Virus record (IMG/VR): IMGVR_UViG_3300035501_000527
Coordinates: 1,583 to 65,582 of that record
DNA from: a virus
Taxonomy: Duplodnaviria; Caudoviricetes
Length of the DNA stretch: 64,000 nt
Strand: one strand, 5' to 3'
In this document: positions 3,577 through 34,192 of the stretch, piece after piece
Position numbering within the stretch: position 1 is the first letter of the stretch
Layout of the letters: each line of letters starts with the position of its first letter
Position numbers and translations under genes: made by a program
The notes under the pieces: generated by a model
Told to the model about the DNA's origin: nothing
Database searches by the model: none
Seen by the model: the letters and a program-made list of their open reading frames with translations, nothing else

Positions 3577-3849
3577 GTGATTTTTATGATTTTGTATAGC
3601 AAAGACAATAATAAAATCAAATGTACAAAATGCAATCAGCCAAAATTTAAAAACTTTGATCATATTGTAGGTACAATTGATGGTAAGAAAATAAATTTCT
3701 GGTTTTCTATACAGAATAACGGAAGTAATTATTATTTTGAATATAATAGCCAATGGTACAGAACTTCTATTGTGACAGATGATGGATTAGATTTGTTTGA
3801 ATACATATATAATGATAGAGAAAAATTTTTTACAAAAAGAACTGAATAG
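3577..3849 (+). CDS. Hypothetical protein
   Basis: ORF track. Confidence 0.7.
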   Translation: MIFMILYSKDNNKIKCTKCNQPKFKNFDHIVGTIDGKKINFWFSIQNNGSNYYFEYNSQWYRTSIVTDDGLDLFEYIYNDREKFFTKRTE

Positions 3850-27112: not shown

Positions 27113-27344
27113 AAGCAACATTTTATTGGTAAAATAAAGCTAGTAAAATCAATGAGTTTAGAGGTTGAAAATTAAAAAAGAGATAAAATAGAACAAAAAT
27201 AAGTATTTTTAATGTTTTTCGGAAAATTATTAAAAATAGAGTCCAAAAAAGTCTTAGTTTTCAATAGTTTTTTGGCATTTAAATACAGAAACACAAAATG
27301 TAAAAATCCCCATAGAACGGTAGTTTCAAAGGGATTTTTATACA

Positions 27345-27555
27345 GTAATGTATAACCTCATATGAGGTATTTGAATAGCCTAAGTCTTAATTGACTACGT
27401 TCATTTAGTTATCACACCATAGAATGATTCCCTAGTTCTATGCAACTGTGTAGGCACTGTAAAAGTCTTGAAAATCACGAGACGGTCAACCTAGTATTGG
27501 TCGAATGACAAGCTATTTGAACATTGGCGAAGGGAAACAACTCTGAAAGGAGGAC
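27345..27555 (+). ncRNA. omegaRNA (HEARO-type) scaffold of IscB; 5' end approximate
   Basis: ATAGCCTAAGTC..GACTACGTT..CCCTAGTTCT..AACATTGGCGAAGGG hallmarks directly upstream of iscB. Confidence 0.8.
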
Positions 27556-27560
27556 GAAAC

Positions 27561-28844
27561 TTGAGAGTATTCGTCAAAAATATGAGAGGTGAGGCTTTAA
27601 TGCCTTGCTCTCAAAGAAAAGCTAGACTTCTATTAAAAGAAGATAAGGCAAAAATTATTAACTATAAGCCATTTGCAATACAATTAAAAATTCAAACTGG
27701 CGAATCAACACAAGAAATTCATCTTGGAATTGATACAGGTGCAAAGTATATTGGTATTGCTGCTACAAGCGGTAATAAGGTCTTAGCAAAAGGTGAGATT
27801 GAATTAAGAGATGATATTCATAAGAATATGACAAATCGACAAACCTTGCGAAAAACGAGAAGAAGCAGAAAAACAAGACATAGACCATCGAGATTTCTAA
27901 ATAGAAAAAGAAAAGATGGCTGGTTGCCACCAACAGTTCAAAGTAAGCTAGATGCTACTTTTATGTGGATAGACAAATTTATTAGTTTATTACCAAATCC
28001 AATTTTACATATAGAAGTTGGGAAATTTAATACTCAAAAAATGAAAAATCCTGACATTACTAACGAAGAGTATCAGAATGGTCAATGTGCAGGATATTAT
28101 GATACAAGGTATTTTGTATTTGCAAGAGATAATTATATATGTCAAGTATGCAAAAAGAAAAATAAAATATTACGCACACATCATCTTTTATATAAGTCAA
28201 AAGGTGGCACTGACAGTGCAGACAATTTAATAACTGTTTGCACCGATTGTCATACATCAGAGAATCACAAACAAGGTGGCATTTTCTATGATTGGATGAT
28301 GAAACATAAGAAAGTAAAATCATATAAAGAAGCAACATTTATGAACATTGTTAGAAGAAGAACTTTTCTGAAGTACCCCGATGCTGTTATTACGTATGGA
28401 TCAGAAACCTCTCCATATAGAAAAGAACTTGGGTTAGAGAAAACTCATTATAATGATGCTATTGCCATTTCAAAGATTGAAAATATTAAAGAAAATCCAA
28501 ACGAATATTTTTGTATTAAACAGTTCAGAAAGAAAAAACGCTCATTGCATGAAAGTATCCCAATCAGAGGCAGAAGAAAAGATAAGAATGTAAATGCAGA
28601 AAGAAAAAATAAGAATGTTCCTTATAGAGCAGGTTGGTATATGAATGATATGGCTTTGTGTGAAGGACAAATAGGATGGATTTATGGTTTTTCTGGAGGG
28701 AATACATCAAATGCTTGTGTATTAAGAGATATAAATGGTAGCATTGTTCGCACTTCAACTGTTAGTAAAAATACGCCAAGTATCAATACTTCTACTTTAA
28801 AATTTATTTGTCATAACAATAATTGGCAATATCAAATTATATAA
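27561..28844 (+). CDS. iscB: IscB RNA-guided endonuclease (PLMP, RuvC, bridge helix, HNH)
   Basis: ALMPC, GIDTG, RRSRKTRHR, HIEVG, HH..GG..NL..C..CH, HYNDA. Confidence 0.92.
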   Translation: MRVFVKNMRGEALMPCSQRKARLLLKEDKAKIINYKPFAIQLKIQTGESTQEIHLGIDTGAKYIGIAATSGNKVLAKGEIELRDDIHKNMTNRQTLRKTRRSRKTRHRPSRFLNRKRKDGWLPPTVQSKLDATFMWIDKFISLLPNPILHIEVGKFNTQKMKNPDITNEEYQNGQCAGYYDTRYFVFARDNYICQVCKKKNKILRTHHLLYKSKGGTDSADNLITVCTDCHTSENHKQGGIFYDWMMKHKKVKSYKEATFMNIVRRRTFLKYPDAVITYGSETSPYRKELGLEKTHYNDAIAISKIENIKENPNEYFCIKQFRKKKRSLHESIPIRGRRKDKNVNAERKNKNVPYRAGWYMNDMALCEGQIGWIYGFSGGNTSNACVLRDINGSIVRTSTVSKNTPSINTSTLKFICHNNNWQYQII

Positions 28845-28979: not shown

Positions 28980-30533
28980 TTGAACAAAAATACAAATAAT
29001 AATAAAAGTAATAATTTAACGAAATTAAAAGTAATTGAACTGTGTAGTGGAATTGGCGCACAGATTAAAGGAATTAAAAATACGAATTTATTTGATTCAG
29101 AAGTTGTAGCAACAGCAGATTTAGATAAAGAAGTGGTAGTCAGTTATGCGGCAATTCATTGTGGTTTAACAAATGATTTGATTAACAGTTATGAAAATTA
29201 TCCATCTAAAGAACAGATGGTAGAAGAACTTACAAAGAAAAGACTCGGATATGATTTTAAAAACGATAAACCTTATGATTGGGAAAAATTAGCAAAGAAA
29301 AAAGATAAAACAAAAGGTGTTGAGAAGTATTGGTTAGCAGATAAACTATCACATAATCTTGGAGATATGATAAAAATTGAAGAATTACCAGATTGTGATT
29401 TTCTATCTTACTCCTGTCCTTGTACCGACATCAGCATTTCCGGTAAACAAGAAGGACTAAAATGGACTTGTCAGGATTGTGGTCACGAATATGATCCGTC
29501 TACATTAGATGTAGAAACAAGATATACTTGCCCAAATTGCGGAAGTAATAATATAAAGTCAACTCGTTCAGGATTATTATATGAGGTTGAACGTTTGCTT
29601 GTAAAAGCAAAAGAGAATGGTAATCTGCCTAAATATTTACTTATGGAAAATGTTGACGCTTTAGTTTCAAAGAAATACATAGAGAGTTTTAATGATTGGA
29701 TTGAGAGATTAAGTAATCTTGGATATGATTCATATTATCAAACAATCAATGCGAAAAATACAGGTATTCCCCAAAATCGTAATAGGATCTTTTGCATATC
29801 AATTCTAAAAGATATTGATTCAAAACAGTTTGAATTTCCACACCCATTTGATACAGGCATTCGATTAAAGGATATGTTGGAAGATGATGAGGAAGTTTTA
29901 GACAAATATTTCCTATCGGATGAAGTACAAAGAAGGTTACAAATCACTGATGAAAAGTTTGAAAAGAATGTAGTTGGCACAACGCTTGGTAAAGAAAATC
30001 ATAGAATTGGAACGAGAGATCTTGTTTATTGGAAAGAAGGAATAATTGGTTGTCTTACATCAACAGACTATAAACAGCCACATCAGATATTAGAAAATCC
30101 TAATGAAATAAAAAAGATTGATAATAAGATTTCAGCTAATGAGCCAATACATATTGCTGATTTGAATAGCGAGAAATATCAAAGAATGCATGAGATTTCA
30201 AGAAGAGTATATAGTGAGGATGGTATTGCTCCTGCTATGCACACTTGTAATGGTGGCAACACAGAGCCAAAGATTGAAAAAGATAATCTAAGGATTGTTA
30301 GGAAGCTTACACCAAAAGAGGCTCATAGGCTTATGGGATTTGATGATATTGATTATGAGAATTGTAAAGCAGTTGGAATGTCTGATACTCAAGGATATAA
30401 ACAAGCGGGTAATTCGATTGTCACAAATTGCATATCTCTATTAATTGAACATTTATATAAAGCTCAGTATGACAATACATATATTTGTACAGATGAAAAG
30501 ATGGTAAATTTTCAGATTCCACAAGCGGAGTAG
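28980..30533 (+). CDS. C5-cytosine DNA methyltransferase with Zn-ribbon insertion
   Basis: ELCSGIG (I), SCPC (IV), MENV (VI), QNRNR (VIII), RKLTPKE (IX), QAGNSI (X). Confidence 0.92.
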   Translation: MNKNTNNNKSNNLTKLKVIELCSGIGAQIKGIKNTNLFDSEVVATADLDKEVVVSYAAIHCGLTNDLINSYENYPSKEQMVEELTKKRLGYDFKNDKPYDWEKLAKKKDKTKGVEKYWLADKLSHNLGDMIKIEELPDCDFLSYSCPCTDISISGKQEGLKWTCQDCGHEYDPSTLDVETRYTCPNCGSNNIKSTRSGLLYEVERLLVKAKENGNLPKYLLMENVDALVSKKYIESFNDWIERLSNLGYDSYYQTINAKNTGIPQNRNRIFCISILKDIDSKQFEFPHPFDTGIRLKDMLEDDEEVLDKYFLSDEVQRRLQITDEKFEKNVVGTTLGKENHRIGTRDLVYWKEGIIGCLTSTDYKQPHQILENPNEIKKIDNKISANEPIHIADLNSEKYQRMHEISRRVYSEDGIAPAMHTCNGGNTEPKIEKDNLRIVRKLTPKEAHRLMGFDDIDYENCKAVGMSDTQGYKQAGNSIVTNCISLLIEHLYKAQYDNTYICTDEKMVNFQIPQAE

Positions 30534-30551
30534 ATAATTCTGCTTGTGGGA
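30506..30551 (+). promoter_or_regulatory. Candidate -1 programmed ribosomal frameshift signal
   Basis: A_AAT_TTT heptamer in MTase frame, 6-nt spacer, 12-bp stem 30519-30530/30538-30549; -1 frame open into ORF 30560. Confidence 0.7.
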
Positions 30552-30559
30552 TAGTTAGA

Positions 30560-30994
30560 ATGGGAAATGTGTCAACAGGCAATTCACAAGCTGGCATGGT
30601 TTATGGAATAAATGGGTTGTTTCCTGCTGTATGTGCTGGCACTCATGGTTATGCAAATGGAAACATTTATGATGATAGAAATAATATTGAATTACCAGCG
30701 GTATTAAAATACCAAAGAACAGAGTACGCTAAGAAAATACGTAAGGATTATGAAGCGGGTAGAATCAAGGAACGTAGATGTAATATGCGTGAATGCACTC
30801 TGAGAGATGATGGATTGTGTAATACTATCACGACAGTGCAGAAAGATAATTACATTGTTGTCGGTGCTGCTATGAGAGGACGTTATAACTCTGATGGAAA
30901 AATTGAACAACAGATAGAAGTCAGGGATGATGAAGTGTCTAATGCAATTACGACAGCACAGAAAGATTCATTGGTGGTCAAATATGAAGAATGA
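30560..30994 (+). CDS. Protein made of MTase target-recognition-like modules
   Basis: VYGINGLFPAV, NTITTVQKD, NAITTAQKD resemble the MTase variable-region modules. Confidence 0.7.
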   Translation: MGNVSTGNSQAGMVYGINGLFPAVCAGTHGYANGNIYDDRNNIELPAVLKYQRTEYAKKIRKDYEAGRIKERRCNMRECTLRDDGLCNTITTVQKDNYIVVGAAMRGRYNSDGKIEQQIEVRDDEVSNAITTAQKDSLVVKYEE

Positions 30995-31177
30995 TAAAGA
31001 AACATATGTAGAAAGAAAGTATAGAGAGTTCTATGAGAAGAATGGTTATATCCCAAAATATTTTGTCCCATATAACTGCTTGGAAGTATCTGATTATGCC
31101 CTACATTGACAACAGAATCAAATACAAGCTTTGGAAAATCCGGTACTGTACTAATTGTTGTGAATAACGATAAATAA
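30984..31177 (+). pseudogene. Further TRD-like module ORF, frameshifted at CCC 31099-31101
   Basis: Adding one C gives DYAPTLTTESNTSFGKSGTVLI, ending TAA 31175-31177. Confidence 0.55.
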
Positions 31178-31721: not shown

Positions 31722-32828
31722 TTGAAAATTGCAATTATTGATGCAGATTTAATAGGAAGAAATAAGCATAGATTTCCTAATCTCGTTTCTATGAAATTAT
31801 CAGGATACTACAAAGAGTTAGGAAGTGATGTTGAATTAAAAACAGATTATGAGAATCTATCAGATTATGACAAAGTATTCATATCTAAAGTATTCACAGA
31901 CACACCAATAGACGAAACCATATTAAATCTTCCAAACGTAGAATATGGTGGTACAGGTTTCTTTTATGATAAAGCACCAAAATTACCAGATGAAGTAGAA
32001 CATCATATGCCGGATTATCACCTATATGATGATTGGGTAAATGATAAGTTAGCGAATGGTAGTAAGAAGAATGATTTTAAATATTACACGGATTATTCGA
32101 TTGGGTTACTGAGTAGAGGATGCTTCCGTCAGTGTCAGTTTTGTGTAAACAGGAATTATAAAAGAGTTTCAGTACATAGTCCATTAGACGAATTTGTTGA
32201 TAAATCAAGAAAGAAAATATGCTTATTAGATGATAATTTCTTAGGTTGCCCTAATTGGAAAGAAATGTTGCTTGAATTGCAAGCCACTGGCAAACCATTT
32301 CAATTTAAGCAAGGGCTTGATGAGCGTATATTAACAGATGAAAAATGTGAGTTGTTATTTAAGAGTAAGTATGATGGTGATTATATCTTCGCATTTGATA
32401 ATATTGCCGATTATGACCTGATTGAAAAGAAGTTACAGTTACTAAGAAAGTATACAGATAAAGTTCCTAAATTTTATGTCTTTTGTGGTTTTGATAGAGA
32501 AGATAAATGGGATAGTGATTTTTGGAAACAAGATTTATGGGATTTATGGAAACGCATCGAATTGCTTATGAAATATCATTGTTTACCATACATAATGAGG
32601 TTTGCAAAGTATGAAGAATCTCCATATAGAGGAACTTATATCAATTTGGCTGCGTGGTGTAACCAACCATCTGCTTTTAAGAAAAAGTCATATAGAGAGT
32701 TTGTGAAATATCAGCAATCAAGACATCCCAAAGAATGTTCAGAAACAAGATATTTGAAACAAATTGAACAGGATATGCCTGATTTAGCAGAAAAATATTT
32801 TGATATGAAGTTTATGGATTTTAATTAA
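31722..32828 (+). CDS. Radical SAM-domain protein
   Basis: RGCFRQCQFC (CX3CX2C), LDDNF motif. Confidence 0.8.
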   Translation: MKIAIIDADLIGRNKHRFPNLVSMKLSGYYKELGSDVELKTDYENLSDYDKVFISKVFTDTPIDETILNLPNVEYGGTGFFYDKAPKLPDEVEHHMPDYHLYDDWVNDKLANGSKKNDFKYYTDYSIGLLSRGCFRQCQFCVNRNYKRVSVHSPLDEFVDKSRKKICLLDDNFLGCPNWKEMLLELQATGKPFQFKQGLDERILTDEKCELLFKSKYDGDYIFAFDNIADYDLIEKKLQLLRKYTDKVPKFYVFCGFDREDKWDSDFWKQDLWDLWKRIELLMKYHCLPYIMRFAKYEESPYRGTYINLAAWCNQPSAFKKKSYREFVKYQQSRHPKECSETRYLKQIEQDMPDLAEKYFDMKFMDFN

Positions 32829-33124: not shown

Positions 33125-34192
33125 ATGATTAGAAAAGTTGATAAGAAAAACAAATTTATATCCGTATTCAATCCAGATACAGGATTTTATGTGAGAACTG
33201 GAGTTATTAAAGATGGTAAAGATACCGGCGAAGATCCTTTTATGACTTCATTTCCTGAATTACTCGATGTGGGAATTATGCAAACATGTGTATGTAGTCA
33301 TAAATGTAATGTTGATTGCTACCAGAAAGCAATTGATAGAACTGGAAATAATATGTCTGTAAAAGATTTTAAAAGTATCTTGGAACAAGGTAAGGGTAAA
33401 TTATTTCAGGTAGCTCTTGGTGGAGCTGGTGATGTAGATACACATGAAAATTTTGAAGATATTGTAAGACTTTGCAGAGAATATAATATTGTTCCAAACT
33501 TTACAACAAGTGGAATCATGATGACAAAAGAAAAAGCTGAGATATGCAAGAAGTATTGCGGTGCAGTTGCGGTGTCAGAACATTTTGCTGATTATACGGA
33601 TAAGGCTTTAGATTTACTTTTAAATGCGGGTGTTAAGACTAATATTCACTATGTATTAAGTAATAAAAGCATTGATACTGCTATTGATAGATTGAAAAAC
33701 AATAGCTTTAAAAGAGGGATTAATGCAGTTGTTTTTCTTCTGTATAAACCTGTAGGACTTGGTATTGAAGAAAATATGTTGAAAGCGAATGATCCGAGAG
33801 TAAAAGAATTCTTTAGTTTGATTGATAAAGGAAATTATCATCACAAAATTGGATTTGATAGCTGCTCTTGTTCAGGAATAGTTAATTATGCAAGTAATAT
33901 AAATCTTGACACTCTTGATTTCTGTGAAGGAGCAAGATATTCAGCTTACATTGATGCAAATATGAATATGATGCCTTGTTCTTTTGCTAATCAGGATAGT
34001 AACTGGTTTGTTAGTTTAAGAGAACATACAATCAAGGAAGCGTGGGATAGTGATATTTTTGAAAAATTTAGATATTCGTTAAGAAATTCATGTAATGGAT
34101 GCATCAATAGATTAAACTGTGCTGGTGGGTGTCCACTTGTTAATCAGATTACATTGTGTAATAGGAAAGAAAGAGACTTTAAGACAAGATAA
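33125..34192 (+). CDS. Radical SAM protein with SPASM domain
   Basis: CSHKCNVDC cluster, ALGGAG, TTSG, MPCSF, CNGC-X5-CAGGC. Confidence 0.85.
   Translation: MIRKVDKKNKFISVFNPDTGFYVRTGVIKDGKDTGEDPFMTSFPELLDVGIMQTCVCSHKCNVDCYQKAIDRTGNNMSVKDFKSILEQGKGKLFQVALGGAGDVDTHENFEDIVRLCREYNIVPNFTTSGIMMTKEKAEICKKYCGAVAVSEHFADYTDKALDLLLNAGVKTNIHYVLSNKSIDTAIDRLKNNSFKRGINAVVFLLYKPVGLGIEENMLKANDPRVKEFFSLIDKGNYHHKIGFDSCSCSGIVNYASNINLDTLDFCEGARYSAYIDANMNMMPCSFANQDSNWFVSLREHTIKEAWDSDIFEKFRYSLRNSCNGCINRLNCAGGCPLVNQITLCNRKERDFKTR

Follow-up and report, generated by a model that had tools for sequence, protein, structure and literature searches.

The 3' end of a gut-phage gene for a C5 DNA methyltransferase (MTase) very probably carries a programmed -1 ribosomal frameshift cassette, and the frameshift most likely yields two isoforms of 517 and 671 amino acids (aa), the longer of which would be extended by an array of modules resembling target recognition domains (TRDs). 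The gene lies in a stretch of 64,000 nucleotides (nt), termed the window here, which covers positions 1,583 to 65,582 of the 65.6-kb IMG/VR virus record IMGVR_UViG_3300035501_000527 (Caudoviricetes), with a completeness of 37% as estimated by CheckV. The cassette, consisting of a slippery heptamer, a hairpin and the stop codon in its loop, is widespread and occurs in phages and prophages of Lachnospiraceae and Clostridia. We infer the slippage itself from the conservation and covariation of the signal, from a -1 frame that is coding, from relatives in which this frame lacks a start codon, and from natural in-frame fusions.

The frameshift signal in the window

A first-pass annotation of the window had placed the heptamer A_AAT_TTT in the frame of the MTase, a 12-bp stem six nt behind it with the TAG stop in the loop, and a -1 frame free of stop codons from 30497 to 30994. 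The positions of all three elements and the phase of the heptamer, which is read by the MTase as GTA AAT TTT (30504-30512), were borne out by our analysis (Table 1), the -1 frame by its translation up to the stop codon at 30992-30994. The unshifted enzyme ends in ...MVNFQIPQAE, whereas the predicted transframe product comprises 511 + 160 = 671 aa with the junction ...MVNF|SDSTSG..., in line with the junction peptide NFSDSTSG and the approximately 160 extra residues that had been proposed. Folding with ViennaRNA lengthened the stem to 16 bp (30516-30531 with 30537-30552) and gave a centroid energy of -23.3 kcal/mol (z = -5.4), which was reached by none of 200 shuffled sequences. Heptamers of the type H_HH.U_UU.Y are among the most efficient -1 motifs in Escherichia coli, and the A_AA.U_UU.U class is efficient in this host (Sharma et al. 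2014, PMC4066793).

No Rfam family matched the hairpin. The motif AAATTTT-N6-CCACAAG is present once in all 65.6 kb of the record, which holds no second tandem cassette. An intrinsic terminator was considered as well and ruled out, as no T-run follows the stem (GATAGTTAGAATG follows instead) and no terminator-like site was detected at 30516-30560.

Conservation of the signal across loci

The conservation of heptamer and stem in homologs had been named by the first-pass annotation as the test of its own proposal. We found the signal, including the spacer length, in 35 further loci with an invariant heptamer and a covarying stem, far beyond a chance occurrence, so that the comparison set comprises 36 loci from viral contigs, metagenome contigs and bacterial genomes, with 29 distinct sequences. 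AAATTTT is unchanged in every locus, and nearly everywhere its phase is that of a long zero-frame open reading frame (ORF) of MTase length which lies upstream; each of the 19 upstream ORFs tested matched PF00145. The codon preceding the AAT of the heptamer is GGA, GAA, GTA, AGA or CAA, hence always ends in A, and the synonymous codons AAC and TTC were never seen. Three synonymous sites of the heptamer are therefore frozen, while synonymous divergence elsewhere is saturated (dS ~1.3).

The spacer measures six nt in 29 of 29 distinct signals, but has 17 different sequences. Every signal is followed by a hairpin, whose stability ranges from -11 to -23 kcal/mol and whose loop contains the stop codon, and the zero-frame stop is located six codons past TTT in 27 of the 29. 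In an alignment of 25 sequences, 94.6% of the cells of the 12 proposed pairs show standard pairing, compared to 41-52% when the 3' partners were slid by one to three columns. Compensatory double changes, for example from A-U to G-C, from C-G to G-C and from G-C to A-U, were observed at five stem pairs together with many G-U intermediates, and in locus L037 the distance of six nt from the heptamer is kept by a stem (GGAGAAGA/TCTTCTCC) that is unrelated in sequence. A further arrangement was identified in L069, a Clostridiales metagenome-assembled genome (MAG), in which a second, tandem cassette at 3710-3790 has an A_AAT_TTT in phase with the first extension, a 6-nt spacer, an unrelated 12-bp stem (-18.6 kcal/mol) and a further -1 frame of 75 aa with a TRD-like module.

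In 27 of the 29 signals, the fold of the sense strand is more stable than that of the antisense strand (mean -17.1 versus -12.3 kcal/mol), which points to an RNA element acting on the mRNA. This bears on the possibility that the hairpin is an element of the DNA, namely a recombination joint or a cruciform for the exchange of TRD cassettes, with the frameshifting being incidental. Such a role would agree with the following observations: immediately behind the conserved hairpin the arrays change in composition, with one to three of the module types that were scored, arranged in several orders; the cassette follows C-terminal contexts that are unrelated to each other, namely those of ordinary MTases, of circularly permuted MTases and of HNH fusions; and tandem cassettes exist. 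We nevertheless regard it as very unlikely, because the frequent G-U pairs and the 4.8 kcal/mol by which the sense fold is favoured indicate RNA rather than duplex DNA, and because the in-phase heptamer and the 6-nt spacer would be left without explanation. The conserved sequence may in addition allow a homology-driven exchange of modules at the cassette.

The signal also leaves its trace in the zero-frame protein. Among the 120 best homologs of the window MTase C-terminus, 113 have a tail of the NFxxP type, which is the zero-frame reading of the heptamer and the 5' arm of the stem; 63 of the 120 end exactly in NFxxPQxE, and most of the other tails read NFxxPQxD. The carriers include many gut viral contigs, MAGs of Lachnospiraceae and Clostridiales, and the cultured Bacterium 1xD42-87, whose locus L067 (RAYM01000015) has the cassette in full. 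The close matches also comprised MTase homologs carrying the names of Coprococcus phoceensis and Anaerocolumna aminovalerica.

Coding status of the -1 frame

The -1 frame, designated ORF2, is under strong purifying selection. Across the loci, its first TRD module shows a ratio of nonsynonymous to synonymous substitution rates (dN/dS) of 0.036 at a dS of approximately 1.3, and this includes 26 nearly invariant codons that precede the first methionine. This finding argues against the assumption that the downstream frame is a decaying, unexpressed remnant of an ancestral in-frame extension or of a second MTase, frameshifted by mutation or by a homopolymer sequencing error. It is true that a fourth module in the window is broken twice (30975-31177), that indels interrupt the arrays of other loci, some of them in A-runs, and that in-frame versions exist. 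However, 36 independent assemblies share this relation of the two frames at saturated synonymous divergence, the synonymous sites of the heptamer are invariant and the stem covaries, features which a pseudogene would lose, so that we see hardly any room for decay as the explanation of the cassette.

The modules of ORF2 were traced by their homologs. A protein search returned 320, many of them ORFs of approximately 100 aa with 80-89% identity. ORF2 itself gave no significant match in Pfam and contains neither motif IX nor motif X, and a sequence search of the PDB returned nothing significant. Using tblastn, the extension matched the variable or TRD regions of phage C5 MTases, e.g. in Bacillus phage LY1, whose MTase of 595 aa was matched at residues 407-532; in cultured phages only internal TRDs of ordinary MTases were matched, H2 and H10 lying within long ORFs. 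A profile of ORF2-type proteins retrieved 57 viral loci. In about half of them the LKYQRTEYAKKIRK...NTITTVQKDNY module is part of an ordinary MTase and stands between its motifs VIII and IX, and the remaining half have a LKYQRTEYAKKIRK-type module in a short frame directly 3' of the MTase. Owing to its position between motifs VIII and IX in ordinary enzymes, the LKYQRTEYAKKIRK-type module is considered to be a genuine TRD, and the TRD-like character assigned to the 160 codons by the first-pass annotation is thereby supported.

The start codons of ORF2 bear on the choice between a frameshift and an independent gene. Reading on from the heptamer, one encounters no ATG, GTG or TTG in 18 of 32 loci until codon 46-51 or 89, where an ATG stands that lacks a Shine-Dalgarno sequence and is mostly the methionine of a conserved NMRE motif; in 13 others the only earlier start is GTG or TTG. 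The window differs by an ATG at codon 18 of its -1 frame, from which a protein of 144 aa could start, and upstream of which only a weak GGGA lies within the 3' arm of the hairpin. ORF2 might thus be a translationally coupled gene, read by re-initiation after the TAG or by a de novo start at this ATG, whose product would act as a free TRD-array protein in trans, while the hairpin would regulate only the coupling or the stability of the mRNA. The distance of 27 nt from stop to ATG and the weak GGGA would suit such coupling, P0002 and P0003 were called from the same start position, and C5 MTases composed of two polypeptides are known (M.AquI, M.EcoHK31I). We nonetheless judge a coupled gene to be unlikely. 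The residues upstream of the late ATG (codon 46 or beyond) in the 18 loci are nearly invariant and under purifying selection although no ATG, GTG or TTG precedes it, ORF2 has no motif IX or X with which it could complement another polypeptide, in-frame fusions exist, and the invariant in-phase heptamer and the fixed 6-nt spacer would remain unaccounted for. The claim of a canonical -1 frameshift signal made in the first-pass annotation is supported by a spacer of fixed length and variable sequence, by a coding -1 frame that in the relatives is mostly devoid of a start codon and by in-frame fusions. The annotation had mentioned neither the ATG at 30560 nor the broken module extending to 31177, nor the placement of the TRDs after motif X.

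Three-frame translation and comparison to intact homologs revealed that the fourth module of the window is broken in the assembly; in the homologs P0018, P0068, P0121 and P0153 it is intact and in frame after the preceding module. ORF2 of the window ends in ...VVKYEE and has no NF tail. One metatranscriptome run contained a single contig of 187 nt identical to 30773-30959, which is evidence of neither expression nor a shift.

Table 1. Coordinates of the MTase gene, the putative frameshift signal and the downstream modules in the window
Feature	Position	Strand	Remarks
Zero-frame C5 DNA methyltransferase ORF	28980..30533	+	517 aa; PF00145, E 6.8e-49
Slippery heptamer A_AAT_TTT	30506..30512	+	X_XXY_YYZ phase of the MTase frame, Asn510-Phe511
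Spacer CAGATT	30513..30518	+	6 nt, between heptamer and stem
Stem-loop core	30519..30549	+	12 bp, 30519-30530 with 30538-30549; two G-U pairs; 7-nt loop 30531-30537
Zero-frame TAG stop	30531..30533	+	First bases of the hairpin loop
Predicted -1-frame extension	30512..30994	+	160 codons and stop; linker spanning the hairpin, followed by three TRD-like modules
ATG in the -1 frame, possible ORF2 start (144 aa)	30560..30562	+	Codon 18; 27 nt past the stop; partly inside the 3' arm
Extension module 1, GNVSTGNSQAGMVYG... type	~30563-30670	+	
Extension module 2, LKYQRTEYAKKIRK...NTITTVQKDNY type	~30692-30862	+	
Extension module 3, AMRGRYN...NAITTAQKDSL type	~30863-30991	+	
Fourth TRD-like module, 5' half (...YREFYEKNGYIPKYFVPYN...)	30975..31109	+	MTase frame (+1 relative to ORF2); premature end
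Fourth TRD-like module, 3' half (PTLTTESNTSFGKSGTVLIVV...)	31094..31177	+	-1 shift at ~31095 beside a CCC run

The zero-frame methyltransferase

Members of the C5 class were recognized by a profile match together with the motifs FxGxG, PC, ENV, RxLTxxE..GF and GNS. The window MTase belongs to this class, and CSGIGA, SCPCTD, MENV, RKLTPKEAHRLMGF and AGNSI were read as its conserved motifs. According to translation and Pfam match, motif I is N-terminal and motifs IX and X are near the C-terminus; an internal variable or TRD region with TRD-like segments spans approximately aa 290-440. Compared to the MTase of L005, the identity over motifs IV-X is 36%. Between motif IV and a TRSGL segment, the window MTase contains a CxxC...CPxC zinc ribbon (29420-29560, aa 148-195), which is absent from the L005 enzyme and present in many relatives, as indicated by weak HypA/Zn_ribbon Pfam matches.

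Proposed mechanism and points against it

We propose that the 517-aa enzyme would be released by most ribosomes upon reaching the TAG of the hairpin loop, while a fraction would pause at the hairpin with tRNA-Asn and tRNA-Phe on AAU UUU and, stimulated by this structure, would slip in tandem by one base back to AAA UUU. The slipped ribosomes would read 160 more codons and thus produce the enzyme of 671 aa, whose C-terminus would be formed by an array of three modules of the TRD type. This tail might offer alternative recognition modules to a single catalytic core, in cis or in a dimer, and the long isoform might thereby widen or change the set of methylated sites and allow the phage to escape more of the host restriction enzymes. 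The assumption of added target sites is based on the homology of the tail modules to TRDs and on the varying composition of the arrays.

Several observations weigh against this explanation or parts of it. A free ORF2 product of 144 aa from the ATG at 30560 is possible in the window. The arrays are broken by indels in L054, L072 and L074 as well as in the fourth module of the window, suggesting that the extension is dispensable in some lineages. If the window stem formed with all 16 bp, the spacer would be reduced to 3 nt, whereas the conserved core leaves 6 nt, and no conserved Shine-Dalgarno-like stimulator was found upstream of the heptamer. To our knowledge, no structural precedent exists for TRDs located behind motif X. 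AlphaFold2 gave low confidence for these parts: in the in-frame fusion P0122 the core was predicted with confidence, but TRDs and tail had a predicted local distance difference test (pLDDT) score below 50 and the tail was unplaceable, and a two-module array reached a mean pLDDT of only 64. A Foldseek search of the latter model against the PDB returned no match at E <= 0.001.

The array breaks of the relatives are single-base indels, as seen by comparing L037 with L054 (~3040), L074 (~2990) and L072, and one of them is located in an A7 run. They could reflect decay, population heterogeneity or assembly error.

Beyond the frameshift itself, a broader picture may be sketched, to which we assign only tentative weight and which may well prove wrong. 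The cassette of heptamer, hairpin and stop, together with the TRD arrays lacking a start codon, might form a portable and stackable system for the expansion of specificity, in which a single core, in cis or as part of a dimer, would make use of modules on its C-terminal tail, outside the slot between motifs VIII and IX. The efficiency of the shift would then set the ratio of the two enzymes, which would differ in their target sets, and the cassette would serve gut phages as a homology joint for shuffling TRDs against host restriction.

Fusions, permutations and insertions

C-terminal TRD modules are also found without a shift. Natural in-frame fusions of MTase and array are joined inside the hairpin loop (P0122) or directly after NF (P0124), further fusions have other joints (P0135, P0153, P0155, P0162 and P0213), and P0268, P0291 and P0340 carry a zero-frame TRD-like module before the NF tail (NFHQPQAD). 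Taken together with the evidence from the -1 frame, these proteins indicate that the architecture with a TRD tail at the C-terminus is under selection in this MTase clade, with or without the shift. The cassette occurs behind ordinary MTases, circularly permuted ones and MTase-HNH_3-NUMOD1 fusions; these varied C-terminal contexts fit a flexible tether and a portable module, and cassette and array indeed appear to be portable.

Many MTases of the clade look circularly permuted (L005:2316-4049, L071:1492-3126, P0155, P0162 and P0153), the window enzyme being unpermuted. The permuted proteins begin at a CEIDKYA motif, so that the Pfam match starts from profile position 24, and have a motif-I-like FSGIGAFE after motif X, just before the frameshift cassette. 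MTase genes of this clade also contain mobile insertions. In L005:2316-4049 and L003:2-835, a homing-endonuclease-like domain of HNH_3 and NUMOD1 separates the MTase core from the NF tail, to both of which it is joined in frame. An intein/Hint profile matched one of 19 aligned MTases, probably the 841-aa ORF of L008 (509-3034). In further MTases (L040:2756-3675; L019/L021/L024 at ~2989), the reading frame changes by -1 within the TRD region behind ...TLLARDYKGFGNQQMTGVME and the gene is thereby split; in L040 the split adjoins TGCAAAAAAGAG. Such splits might represent either another type of recoding site or a shared pseudogene.

Comparison to known systems and significance

In the literature searched, including a review on recoding (PMC5009743), no programmed frameshift was described in a DNA methyltransferase. 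PRFect cites a methyltransferase frameshift, but this appears to be its reference 36, which deals with macrolide-induced frameshifting and not with a DNA MTase. We found no published description of frameshifting that is used to extend a DNA MTase with TRD modules. The macrolide case just mentioned is presumably the leader of an erm rRNA methylase.

The closest parallels as to the signal are the -1 frameshift of the G/GT tail-assembly-chaperone genes of phage lambda and its relatives (Xu, Hendrix and Duda 2004, as cited in PMC10885494) and the tau/gamma products of E. coli dnaX. As in these systems, the heptamer is located near the gene's 3' end, one gene would yield a short protein and a C-terminally different or extended one in a fixed ratio, and the signal is conserved across very divergent sequences; the downstream hairpin resembles that of dnaX. 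In contrast to both, the gene is a C5 DNA MTase, the heptamer is A_AAT_TTT instead of G_GGA_AAG or A_AAA_AAG, a Shine-Dalgarno-like stimulator is not seen upstream, the extension consists of recognition modules in an array that varies, and tandem arrangements of the cassette occur (L069).

In the multispecific C5 MTases of the Bacillus phages SPR, phi3T, rho11s, H2 and SPbeta, which were studied by the Trautner laboratory, all TRDs lie between motifs VIII and IX and in one frame. The enzymes described here share with the SPR/phi3T type the phage origin, the presumed anti-restriction role and the combination of one core with several short, contiguous and exchangeable TRDs, and their module types also occur as internal TRDs. 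They differ in that the extra TRDs follow motif X (or the permuted motif I) rather than standing in tandem between motifs VIII and IX, and would be reached by a frameshift.

M.AquI and M.EcoHK31I are C5 MTases of two polypeptides, of which the second has its own start and supplies motif IX or motifs IX-X; the beta polypeptide of EcoHK31I is encoded in another frame within the alpha gene. Overlapping frames in a C5 MTase locus and a second frame that supplies part of the apparatus for DNA recognition are common to these enzymes and the window. However, the zero-frame enzyme of the window already has motifs I-X, and its second frame, which in the relatives mostly lacks a start codon, has only TRD modules and is accompanied by a frameshift signal. 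A split enzyme of the M.AquI/M.EcoHK31I type was rejected for these reasons, given that the zero-frame ORF contains IX and X and that ORF2 has neither these motifs nor a Pfam match.

If the proposed frameshift is true, DNA methyltransferases would become one of the few gene families in which programmed frameshifting is conserved, and would provide an unusually clean case of recoding, in which the heptamer is invariant, the spacer fixed and the stem covarying. The cassette points to an undescribed build of multispecific C5 MTases, in which recognition modules are appended past motif X, and thereby challenges the view that TRDs are obligatorily positioned between motifs VIII and IX. The natural pairs of short and long enzymes would lend themselves to the study of how TRDs are presented to a catalytic core. 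Hundreds of small "hypothetical" ORFs following phage MTases are probably mis-called and should be annotated as joined coding sequences. Given that cultured carriers such as Bacterium 1xD42-87 exist, the prediction is directly testable.

Genomic setting of the locus

The locus had no match by blastn among 50,697 phage records. Directly upstream of the MTase, an ORF at 27561-28844 encodes an IscB-type nuclease (RRXRR domain, PF14239, E 3.5e-56, and HNH), which is preceded on its 5' side by a HEARO/omega RNA at 27325-27541 (Rfam RF02033, 89.6 bits). Downstream of the MTase locus, two ORFs at 31722-32828 and 33125-34192 look radical-SAM-like, the second with SPASM-like cysteine clusters, and several ORFs located 3' of this pair share an N-terminal ...TNSSSSSFII motif, as far as can be judged from their translations alone.

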